DNA of 64,000 bases from Escherichia coli. Lineage in GTDB: Bacteria; Pseudomonadota; Gammaproteobacteria; Enterobacterales; Enterobacteriaceae. A program made the position numbers. How positions within the stretch are numbered: position 1 is the first letter of the stretch; each line of letters begins with the position of its first letter. The stretch lies in assembly GCF_016026235.1 (NCBI RefSeq), contig NZ_CP065613.1. One strand, written 5' to 3'. This document shows, in pieces, positions 33,001 through 35,563 of the stretch.

Positions 33001-35563
33001 TGTAGAATTTTCGATGGTTCACCTGAATAAACCTCATCCAGAGCTCTAACGTATTCGAGAGTTTCAGCGTTGGACAACCAGTGATCCAGACGCTTCCCGA
33101 AACGTTTTGCAATATCAGTGGCATTAATCCAGCCATCAGTATTGAAGCGGATAGGTTCGCCTTTGTAATTCAGTGGAACGATATTCATAGCGTCTTACCT
33201 TTTAGAAAGATGAGCCTGTTCGCACAGAAAAGCCGCCCCGAGATGGTCGCCACCATATACGGCAGTTCTCAGGCTCAGCTTTCTGAAAGACTCGGGATTG
33301 TTACGCGCTGCGATGCGCGGTTTACTGCGGACATATAAAAGCCCCGCAAGTGCGAGGCTCATTAAATTGACTTTGTGATTTGCAAAAAAATTATTTCAGG
33401 CATTGCGTCCTGATGTATTCCTGCAGGTAGTTAACCTGCGCGGTTATCCTGTCGATTCCACTTCGGAGACGGTAATAATTGAGTTCAGCATCTGCTGTAA
33501 GTCCTGGGCTTTCTCCATAGCCCATGCTGCTGGCTCCGGTCGTTGACTTTGCACAGGTGGCGGCGACTTGCAGGCGCTTACGACCAGCAGAAACATCAGC
33601 ACGGAGACTTTCGATAGTCGCGTTAGCATCAGCAAGCTCCTTTGTGTATCTGGCGTCGAGTTCTGCTACATCACGTTGACGCTTCTGCATATCAGAGATG
33701 ATGGATGTGGCCTTATCGCGCTGCTCTTTGTAGGTAATGGCGTTATCACGGTAATGATTAACAGCCCATGACAGGCAGACGATGATGCAGATAACCAGAG
33801 CGGAGATAATCGCGGTGACTCTGCTCATTGATCTATCCCCCAACAGGCTAATGCGCTTTCCTGGTCACGACGAATAACCTGTCCATAGCAGTTATTTGAA
33901 CGTATGCGGCAATCGCGCCCAACATCTTTTATCCACCAGCGAATCGCCTCGCATGCGCCCTTACGATCACCGGCATTCAGCCGCTTATAAAACGTCGACG
34001 GGAAACACTTACCGGGGCCAATGTTATAGGGGCAAAATGACGCTATACCCGCTTTTTGTGGTTCGGTCAGTGGTACTTTAATATTGCGCTCCACCCATGC
34101 CAGCGCCTTATCACGTTCAATGGCGTTAACCTGGTCGCATTTTTCCTTCGACAGCTTCATTCCCGGTATGACAGGCTTACCATCCACCATTGTGGCACCA
34201 CGACAGATGGTCCATATGCCAGAACCATCACGGTATGCCGTTGTGTGATTACCCTCTTTTTCGTTCAGAAACTGGTCAAGTATCTGGGGAGCAGACGCGC
34301 CTGCGGCAATCAGCGCCAGAACAGCAGCCGACAGGCCGTATTTGATTTTTGCGCTCATGGATATTTATCAGGATTTATCGGCAACAAATAACGAGCCAAC
34401 TTATATACGCCTTTTAAGATAAGTCAGCCCCAGCTGGATCCAGTCATCAGGCTCTTTCTTAAAGGGGGAGTATTGAAATCACGAAGAAGAGCCTCCCGCA
34501 CCGCAGCATCCATGTCTGCACCACTGGCAAGTGCTTCAATCTCTGCCGCCACCTGCAAATACCCCATGCAACGGCCAATGCGTTTCATAACTCTGGTGTT
34601 TTCGTCTTTCAGGCATCTGATAGCGAGATTAATAATTTTCAGGCAGTGATGATGCGATGCCCGGACAGGTTTTCCGTTCTCATAAACGACGAACTCACCC
34701 TCTTCACAGGAAACCCTGAAAGGCCGACGGGGTTCCTGGTCTTTATCCGGTGCAGACGCAATAAAATCACTTTTATGCTCTTCCTCTCCGGCACTGTTAA
34801 CCGTAATGACGTACTCAGGCCGCAGGTAAGCCGCCTCTTTTTCTGACAATGCGGCCGGTAAAAACTTTTCCTGCAAAAACTTCATAAAAGTCTCGTGAGC
34901 GACTTTGTGGCAGTAATCGTAAATCGCCGCATAATGCTCATCGCGGCGTTTGTTTTCATCTTCAGAACTCACCAACGCCGACAATTTTTATTAAGCTCAG
35001 TGATTTCATTTTCCAGGTGATTGAATCGCTGATTCATTTCTTCATGCTTCATTATTTACTCTCCCCGTGCAGCCTTACGCTTGTCTTCTCTTATTTTGAA
35101 ATACAGATTCGTCAGATAAGTCAGAAGCCCCAGAAGCAGACTTCCCAGCACACCAATCGCAGCCCACTGTGATGGACTGACCTGATCCAACCACTGCAAA
35201 AACCAGTAGCCGGCACTGCCGGCGGAGGTGCCGTAGGCAATGCCCGTTGAAATTTTGTCCATGGATTTCATAGCCTCACCTCCGCAAATAACGGATGGCG
35301 TAGTTTTACACTGAGAAATGAAAGGGATTTGAAAAGAAAAAAACGCAAAAGCGGGCGAAACGATATATACAGTAAGGAAAGCACTCTATCCAACAAACCA
35401 CCCACAGTTAATCGGAATAAAAGCAGAGTGCTTATGAATGATCGCACGCCCGAAGGTTAGTATTTCTGCACAGCAATTTTGCAAAAAAAGGCGATCATTC
35501 ATAACTTAAACGTCTTTCAGTCACTCCGGGATTTCCCATCATCGCAGACTGAAAGACTCTGAC

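Follow-up and report, generated by a model that had tools for sequence, protein, structure and literature searches.

A 209-codon accessory gene between the pinholin and endolysin genes of an Escherichia coli prophage, with a reading frame most likely broken by a homopolymer under-call

Why should a reading unit in two frames lie between the pinholin and the endolysin of a prophage whose lysis genes resemble those of phage 21, and what does it encode? The locus was found in a stretch of 64,000 nucleotides of an Escherichia coli chromosome (RefSeq assembly GCF_016026235.1, contig NZ_CP065613.1), referred to below as the window. A preliminary description, made from this sequence alone, had noted a unit of about 200 codons that appeared to be frameshifted at a short homopolymer. 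With considerable confidence, we read it as a 209-codon accessory gene, probably of the moron type, located in the late operon, in which a run of six A has been under-called by one base and whose 3' end carries a real deletion.

The lysis cassette and its extra reading unit

Judged from its sequence, the cassette belongs to the phage 21 type, with a class II dual-start holin, a SAR lysozyme and an Rz gene in which Rz1 is embedded (Table 1). The pinholin matched the holin families PHROG 9876/20 in the PHROG profile search (E 3e-36), and its gene is about 86% identical in DNA to S of phage 21. The endolysin matched PHROG 7 (endolysin, E 1.3e-62) and is 100% identical to the lysozyme of CFSAN029787, an enteroinvasive E. 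coli (EIEC); its N-terminus reads as Gly/Ala-rich and hydrophobic, and a SAR segment is predicted there. The Pfam domains PF04971, PF00959 and PF03245 (Phage_lysis) are found on genes of a public contig (L007, see below) that are identical to the pinholin, endolysin and Rz genes of the window, respectively. Four tRNA genes, annotated likewise in CFSAN029787, lie between the Q antiterminator and the cassette, an arrangement that places the accessory gene in the late operon. A scan for promoters and terminators inside the cassette gave nothing above the level of shuffled sequences.

Reading of the ORFs confirmed the preliminary description with regard to the coordinates of the two ORFs, the T5 run, the spacing from the pinholin stop and the Shine-Dalgarno sequence (GGGGAG/GGAGAG, 7-12 nt upstream of the ATG) that the accessory gene has of its own.

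Table 1. Positions in the window of the lysis cassette, the parts of the accessory gene and the single-base deletions private to this assembly.
Feature	Position	Strand	Remarks or source
Q antiterminator	36454..36077	-	Mapping of intact reference proteins
Four tRNA genes (CAT, Arg-TCT, Thr-TGT, Gly-TCC)	35564..35874	-	ARAGORN
Class II (phage 21 S-type) pinholin, 71 aa, dual-start motif MKSM	35056..35271	-	ORF list
Pinholin stop codon TAA	35058-35056	-	ORF reading
Accessory gene, 209 codons once the run is A6	34424..35052	-	
ATG of the accessory gene	35052-35050	-	3 nt past the pinholin stop
5' fragment, 27-codon ORF (MKHEEMNQRFNHLENEITELNKNCRRW, then stop)	34969..35052	-	True N-terminus is the first 22-23 codons
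Run of A5 as read on the coding strand (plus strand: T5)	34985-34989	-	One A fewer than the A6 of all relatives
TGA closing the 27-codon ORF	34971-34969	-	
3' fragment, 186-codon ORF from TTG	34424..34984	-	-1 frame relative to the ATG
C5 run marking a 1-nt deletion	34463..34467	-	Relatives read CCACCC or CCGCCC
Ancestral C-terminal coding sequence in the other frame (PFKKEPDDWIQLGLTYLKRRI, then stop)	34401..34466	-	TAA at 34403-34401
SAR endolysin (R21-type lysozyme), 177 aa	33825..34358	-	ORF list
Rz i-spanin, 145 aa from ATG	33391..33828	-	ORF list
Rz1-like lipoprotein ORF (...LLVVSAC...), embedded in Rz	33635..33444	-	
Window-private deletion sites	~34990 (accessory gene), 31886, 30347, 29471, 28806, 26683, 24826, 24779/24775		Three-way alignment

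One gene in two frames and the origin of the break

The frame break is truly present in the sequence as given. The products of the two ORFs nevertheless behave as parts of a single protein when compared with phage protein families. The 186-aa piece matched positions 141-286 of PHROG 1085 (E 1.3e-64), and the 27-aa piece matched positions 117-139 of the same family (E 0.0017), immediately ahead of it. In PHROG 36381 the two pieces are again adjacent (positions 1-23 and 24-82), and the 27-aa piece also matched positions 1-23 of PHROG 15975, with the same contiguity across the junction. Contiguous matches of this kind to PHROG 1085 and PHROG 36381 are more than chance would produce. Along the same lines, tblastn with an intact reference protein aligned its residues 1-22 to the 27-codon ORF and 23-209 to the 186-codon ORF, the latter at 99.5%. 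When one A is inserted in the run, the result is a 209-aa protein that matches exactly the catalogued P0122 and lies one residue (W208R) from WP_001300760.1. These two records, together with the membership in PHROG 1085, contradict the earlier impression that the protein matched nothing recognised.

At the DNA level, positions 34400-35080 are matched at 99.7% in five complete E. coli genomes by 682 bases instead of the 681 of the window. The slot of CFSAN029787 is occupied by a single 209-aa CDS (WP_001300760.1) whose gene shows just two differences from that of the window, the extra A (A6) and a single substitution close to the 3' end. A6 was aligned also in L001, L003 and L004, where AAT AAA AAA YTG reads N-K-K-L; the more distant relatives that have A6, at identities of 76-87%, comprise an Stx2a phage and two other E. 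coli genomes. The dN/dS values between family members (0.16-0.50, tighter in the C-terminal half) fit a real coding gene under moderate constraint. On this sequence evidence, the 27- and 186-codon ORFs form a single unit of about 209 codons, and the homopolymer is the place where it breaks. The preliminary description was therefore right in placing an extra gene between S and R, as the single CDS of CFSAN029787 confirms, and in taking it for one broken unit, as the contiguous profile matches and the homologs with A6 confirm.

To what is the missing A due? P0122 is encoded on ten public contigs, two of which are long (L007, GCA_900449985.1, and L008, GCA_014155105.1) and carry the same prophage as the window does at 45052..24456. 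Over about 20.6 kb, pairwise comparison found no mismatch between the window and either L007 (34 gap openings) or L008 (27 gap openings). In the three-way alignment all the differences are indels of the homopolymer type and each assembly has a private set: 27 in L007, mostly insertions, 21 in L008, mostly deletions, and about nine sites in the window, all of them single-base deletions in runs of 4-8. Mapping of intact reference proteins showed that the deletions private to the window split the genes for DUF1441/TerS, TerL (twice) and the portal, and comparison with CFSAN029787 showed gpJ to be broken as well, at ~15080. All 16 chromosomal genes tested (yehP to btsS, mlrA to yohC) are in one frame, and so are all the early phage genes tested (int, SPFH, ORF6N, DnaB, Q, S, R). 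When the three assemblies are combined by majority, every late gene is whole again: TerS has 164 aa, TerL 700 aa (100% identical to that of FDAARGOS_943), the portal 501 aa, a protease/capsid fusion 699 aa and the accessory protein 209 aa. Moreover, the run is A6 in all eight other assemblies in which the DNA of the gene is identical on both sides of it, and in 6.7 kb compared with CFSAN029787 the A-run is the sole indel, next to 32 substitutions.

The locus thus combines a private homopolymer indel, companion indels, an absence of substitutions and a consensus that restores the ORFs, which are the marks of an artefact. Nine frameshifts free of substitutions, each private to one of three assemblies, make inherited mutations implausible; the pattern fits consensus error in homopolymers. 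Rather than a biological frameshift, the A5 is most likely a one-base under-call of A6 in this assembly, one of about nine in the late region. As to why the errors cluster there, late-region DNA has 7-9 matching places in each related genome and the L008 contig ends inside the prophage. Both observations suggest repeats, and repeated prophage DNA probably resists short-read polishing. A quality flag follows for this assembly: uncorrected homopolymer deletions span the late region of the prophage, and the apparent pseudogenes there (terminase, portal, head, gpJ and the accessory gene) should not be taken as biology.

Other readings of the break have to be weighed against the under-call. That the 186-codon ORF is complete from its internal TTG, and the 27-codon frame fortuitous, had been named in the preliminary description as the alternative to its own view, and 186-aa products are indeed annotated in some records. 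Exact look-up retrieved two of them (P0155 and P0156), the fold search brought up Q0T1M3 of Shigella flexneri 8401 (186 aa), and the annotation of M90T contains this product as well. The underlying DNA points elsewhere, since the E. coli contigs of P0155 have A6 (GCTTAATAAAAAATTG) and their first base lies 4-14 nt ahead of the TTG; they are truncations at contig edges, and we have rejected them as independent A5 alleles. P0156 is the product of a frameshifted copy: both copies in S. flexneri 8401 read AATAAAAAATTTGTCGG, that is, A6 followed by T3 instead of T2, and this genome was likewise rejected as an A5 allele, its lesion being an extra T. The 27-aa piece is homologous to the N-terminus of the family, and stand-alone members conserve MxHEEMNQRxxxLENEIxELNKKLS there. 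The alignments of homologs reject an internal start, to which we give practically no credence. We find it extremely unlikely, too, that -1 ribosomal frameshifting or transcriptional slippage joins the frames on purpose. The shift needed is indeed -1 and falls at a run of A, and slippage on long A/T runs is known in E. coli and Shigella. However, all homologs are single-frame with A6 and none keeps the arrangement in two frames, the zero-frame context T_AAA_AAT offers no X_XXY_YYZ heptamer, and the RNA downstream folds no better than shuffled sequences (z = -1.57). Efficient transcriptional slippage takes runs of about eight or more, a length that A5 does not reach.

A true A6-to-A5 slip-strand mutation, i.e., a pseudogene formed as part of prophage decay in an EIEC/Shigella-type lineage, has more in its favor. 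The extra T of S. flexneri 8401 is probably real, because the genome is finished and carries it in two copies; it is a frameshift at the same A6T2 junction, leading to the same 186-aa ORF. Two other family members (P0024 and P0025) have frameshifts at a second poly-A tract, and the accumulation of pseudogenes is well established in Shigella and EIEC. The conserved C-terminal motif of this allele had already gone through a real deletion (see below), and selection against a further frameshift may therefore be weak. Against this stand the comparison with two sister assemblies, in which about nine homopolymer deletions are private to the window and not one substitution is seen, the fact that these deletions strike essential late genes, the private indel set of each of the three assemblies with a consensus that restores every ORF, and the A6 of the eight assemblies with the identical allele. 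Besides, a truncated product with the tail of this allele is absent among about 15 billion catalogued proteins. We regard a real mutation in the window strain as unlikely, and it is the slippage in another lineage that leads us to keep for it a small share of the probability. Very unlikely, in our judgment, is a bolder version in which the 5' poly-A tracts, namely A6 at N-K-K and, elsewhere in the family, A8 at E-K-K, are slip-strand on/off switches and the family is a late-expressed phage factor that acts on host RNA decay through RNase E. If this were true, naturally occurring off-states, as opposed to errors, would account for the A5 of the window, for A6T3 in S. flexneri 8401 and for the A9 variants.

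Family, domain structure and an inherited 3' deletion

With the run restored to A6, the protein can be placed in a family of 132 homologs (E <= 1e-3); a profile search of 1.84 billion proteins gave 22 representatives of clusters at 50% identity. Homologs occur in E. coli and Shigella and nowhere else, apart from more distant ones that come from Salmonella and from unassigned short-read contigs. The long hits P0146, P0147 and P0151 were rejected as homologs, as they are HEAT-repeat proteins matching a single helical hairpin. The family is mosaic. A DUF1327/YdfR domain (PF07041) forms the N-terminus of every distant member and of many of those with 259-333 aa; behind it come a helical segment with the motif NKKLS, a variable middle and, at the C-terminus, a conserved module of some 115 aa. 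YdfR of K-12 (103 aa) aligns at 62% identity to residues 1-74 of one such long form (P0004). The stand-alone relatives (185-222 aa) have no precomputed Pfam domain, and a Pfam scan of the 186-aa product gave no match, DUF1327 included, at E <= 0.001; its matches to HEAT_2 (E 0.47) and YqeY (E 0.65) were discarded as noise. By its sequence, the gene of the window is the form devoid of DUF1327, made of a short N-terminus of its own, the helices and the C-terminal module. It can be recognised as a real and already catalogued gene, a member of PHROG 1085 that corresponds to the C-terminal module of the "YdfR family" proteins.

The profile searches that had been proposed in the preliminary description thus returned the PHROG 1085 match across the junction and no match in Pfam, PADLOC or NCBIfam (0 families at E <= 1 among the defence profiles of PADLOC-DB, and only noise in NCBIfam). 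A PDB sequence search with the family profile found nothing below E 0.1. The repaired product (24 kDa, pI 6.0) has no transmembrane segment and is predicted to be soluble. For a full-length member (P0002, alignment A1) the AlphaFold2 model was too poor for a fold search (pLDDT 51.5, pTM 0.24), whereas the C-terminal module was modelled better (pLDDT 75.4, pTM 0.67), as a three-stranded beta-meander followed by a helical bundle. Compared with PDB, BFVD and AFDB50, the model of the module retrieved nothing informative beyond its own family.

A second indel, at the 3' end, is of a different nature. Where relatives have ACGCCACCCTTT in the alignment, ACTCCCCCTTT stands in the window and in the lineage of CFSAN029787; this 1-nt deletion turns the last residues from FKKEPDDWIQPGLTYLKGRI into LRKSLMTGSSWG. 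In this way LRKSLMTGSSWG takes the place of FKKxPxxWxQPGLxYLKxRI, the C-terminal motif conserved in the family, with K, W, P, G and L invariant, and the lost tail holds 5 of the 13 positions that are invariant across the wider family. The derived tail is common to CFSAN029787, the P0121 allele (379 contigs) and Shigella flexneri variants, and the deletion is therefore inherited and real. Three-frame translation of 34480..34395 shows the ancestral tail to be still readable in another frame, and hence the 3' frameshift to be recent. Even the repaired 209-aa product may be impaired, and the gene of the window is a derived and possibly impaired allele of the family. The term "remnant", used in the preliminary description, is appropriate for this real 3' deletion but not otherwise.

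The holin-endolysin interval, possible role and comparison with known systems

The interval between holin and endolysin is filled in several other prophages and phages. The Qin prophage of K-12 has the order essQ-ydfR-rrrQ-rzpQ, and mEp460, a viable phage, has holin-YdfR family-lysozyme-Rz. L004 has in its slot this module together with a distinct DUF1327 gene of 75 aa and an ORF on the reverse strand, while the gene of a distant member (P0150) is found two genes upstream of the holin. From these arrangements, the holin-endolysin interval is a known site of insertion for genes of this group. The comparison of lysis cassettes suggested in the preliminary description therefore finds the same slot filled in CFSAN029787, Qin, mEp460 and L004. 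The adjacency of S and R assumed there holds for phage 21 itself but, given Qin and mEp460, not in general.

A way to approach the role of the gene is to consider its surroundings and its domain fusions. It belongs to a lambdoid prophage that carries ipaH and lies in an E. coli chromosome of the EIEC/Shigella type. Its start 3 nt after the pinholin stop, together with its own Shine-Dalgarno, suggests that the protein would be made late, with the lysis proteins and from the late promoter. The product would be a soluble cytoplasmic protein with long helices at the N-terminus and the beta-meander and helical bundle at the C-terminus. The fusions of its module to DUF1327 suggest that it may act in the same pathway as DUF1327/YdfR. 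As a working view, we consider it a dispensable, late-expressed cytoplasmic accessory protein of the moron type, with low confidence about its specific activity; "moron", another term of the preliminary description, is a fair one. Residues 1-72 of YdfR have been reported to bind RNase E's catalytic domain, and possibly RNA (PMC13232886). For the accessory gene this result could only be a lead, as it concerns DUF1327, a domain that the gene of the window does not have. In the literature on DUF1327/YdfR and on genes lying between the holin and the endolysin of Stx or lambdoid phages, we found no functional study of the module. The long fused forms and the stand-alone module would be natural partners to test in connection with the YdfR-RNase E report.

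Among known genes, the closest are WP_001300760.1/P0121 and P0122, annotated as "hypothetical protein" or "Phage protein" in EIEC (e.g., CFSAN029787, O28ac) and in Shigella prophages. They are the same gene in the same slot and with the same derived C-terminal tail, and differ in that their records have A6 and an intact frame, whereas the window has A5. Q0T1M3/P0156 ("hypothetical bacteriophage protein" of S. flexneri 5b 8401 and 5a M90T) has in common with the window the gene, the slot and the 186-aa downstream ORF, but its lesion is an inserted T (A6T3) and that of the window a missing A. The long YdfR-family proteins (P0004, 333 aa; P0091, 296 aa; the distant P0139-P0150) have the helical stretch with NKKLS, the middle of variable sequence and the conserved C-terminal module (...ENGK..SHxH..AIxxLK...MKRIGRCMGYLQVAAEIEA...FNTPPFKK.P..W..PG..YLK.RI) in common with the gene of the window, and are likewise associated with lysis cassettes. 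Unlike it, they bear an N-terminal DUF1327 (PF07041) and have kept the C-terminal motif that was lost in the lineage of the window.

YdfR (b1555, Qin) and gp55 of mEp460 occupy the same slot between a class II holin and a lysozyme as the gene of the window, but they are proteins of about 103 aa that comprise nothing but DUF1327 and share no sequence with it; YdfR is the domain that is fused to the module of the window in the long forms. Finally, the cassette of phage 21 (S21 pinholin, R21 SAR endolysin, Rz/Rz1) has the same gene types as that of the window, with S and R adjacent in phage 21, whereas the window and many lambdoid prophages have an accessory gene between them.

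Frameshifts in the accessory gene and its relatives

One of the frameshifts in the accessory gene between pinholin and SAR endolysin, located near its 3' end, is a true, inherited component of the lineage (see table). This 1-nt deletion is common to the window, CFSAN029787, the P0121 allele (a 209-aa family protein with the same derived tail, 379 contigs) and Shigella flexneri variants. Owing to it, the conserved C-terminal motif of the family has been replaced, and the ancestral tail, PFKKEPDDWIQLGLTYLKRRI*, remains legible in another frame at 34401-34466.

The upstream A6T2 junction is also broken in S. 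flexneri 5b 8401 (CP000266.1), where both homologous copies (loci L021 and L022) read AATAAAAAATTTGTCGG at ~5995-6001 of the locus. This is A6T3, not A6T2, i.e., an inserted T that produces a frameshift at the same junction as in the window and yields the same 186-aa ORF (Q0T1M3). The M90T annotation includes a product identical to this ORF.

Other family members contain a second poly-A tract, GAT GAA AAA AAA CGC (A8; ~2125-2140 in locus L003). Two catalogued proteins, P0024 and P0025 (the latter found on 11 contigs), start with MKKKRRD, which requires A9 and hence a frameshift at this second tract, in short-read assemblies. In the window (~34946-34960) the tract is broken up and reads GAAAACAAA.

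Features of the window's prophage
Feature	Position	Strand	Location or status
Four tRNA genes, anticodons CAT, TCT, TGT, TCC	35564-35874	-	Q antiterminator to holin interval
1-nt deletion, accessory gene near 3' end	C5 run, 34463-34467		real, inherited
Further single-base homopolymer deletions	~31886, 30347, 29471, 28806, 26683, 24826, 24779/24775		private to window assembly
Further single-base homopolymer deletions, same kind	~15080 and ~19745		private to window assembly
ipaHe, ipaH-type T3SS effector gene	~9160-10800		tail-fibre end of prophage

Homopolymer deletions in the late region

The deletions private to the window assembly break the genes for DUF1441/TerS, TerL (twice), portal and gpJ, and additional ones are found in the head-gene region. 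A majority consensus of the window with two other assemblies of its prophage, L007 (GCA_900449985.1) and L008 (GCA_014155105.1), made whole again the genes that these two cover. The apparent pseudogenes in the late region of this prophage are not to be trusted. As for ipaHe, the C-run at ~9182 is C7 in the window versus C6 in CFSAN029787, whose copy is annotated as frameshifted; from this comparison of runs, the intact copy may be the window's rather than that of CFSAN029787.

Variable gene content around the lysis genes

The holin-endolysin slot varies elsewhere. In E. coli FDAARGOS_943 (NZ_CP065615.1; 6562-7718 in locus L006), whose prophage is otherwise near-identical to that of the window, an IS600 occupies the place of the holin and accessory gene, leaving lysozyme and Rz without a holin, and another IS600 follows Rz. 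In E. coli 2015C-3121 (locus L004, 2028-3216) the first gene in the slot is that of the module, at 213 aa, followed by a DUF1327 gene of 75 aa and, ahead of the lysozyme, a reverse-strand ORF of 95 aa; module and DUF1327 are thus adjacent separate genes, in reversed order compared to the fused forms elsewhere. The Rz-to-terminase interval is a second variable slot (window 32667-33390 versus 9782-11012 in locus L005). It contains only a 173-aa KilA-N gene in the window, unlike CFSAN029787 and FDAARGOS_943, which have a ParD/ParE toxin-antitoxin pair in addition to a KilA-N gene. Among the tRNA genes, the one with the CAT anticodon is tRNA-Ile in the CFSAN029787 annotation and tRNA-Met by ARAGORN. 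The location of tRNA genes between Q and holin resembles the arrangement of Stx-type lambdoid phages.
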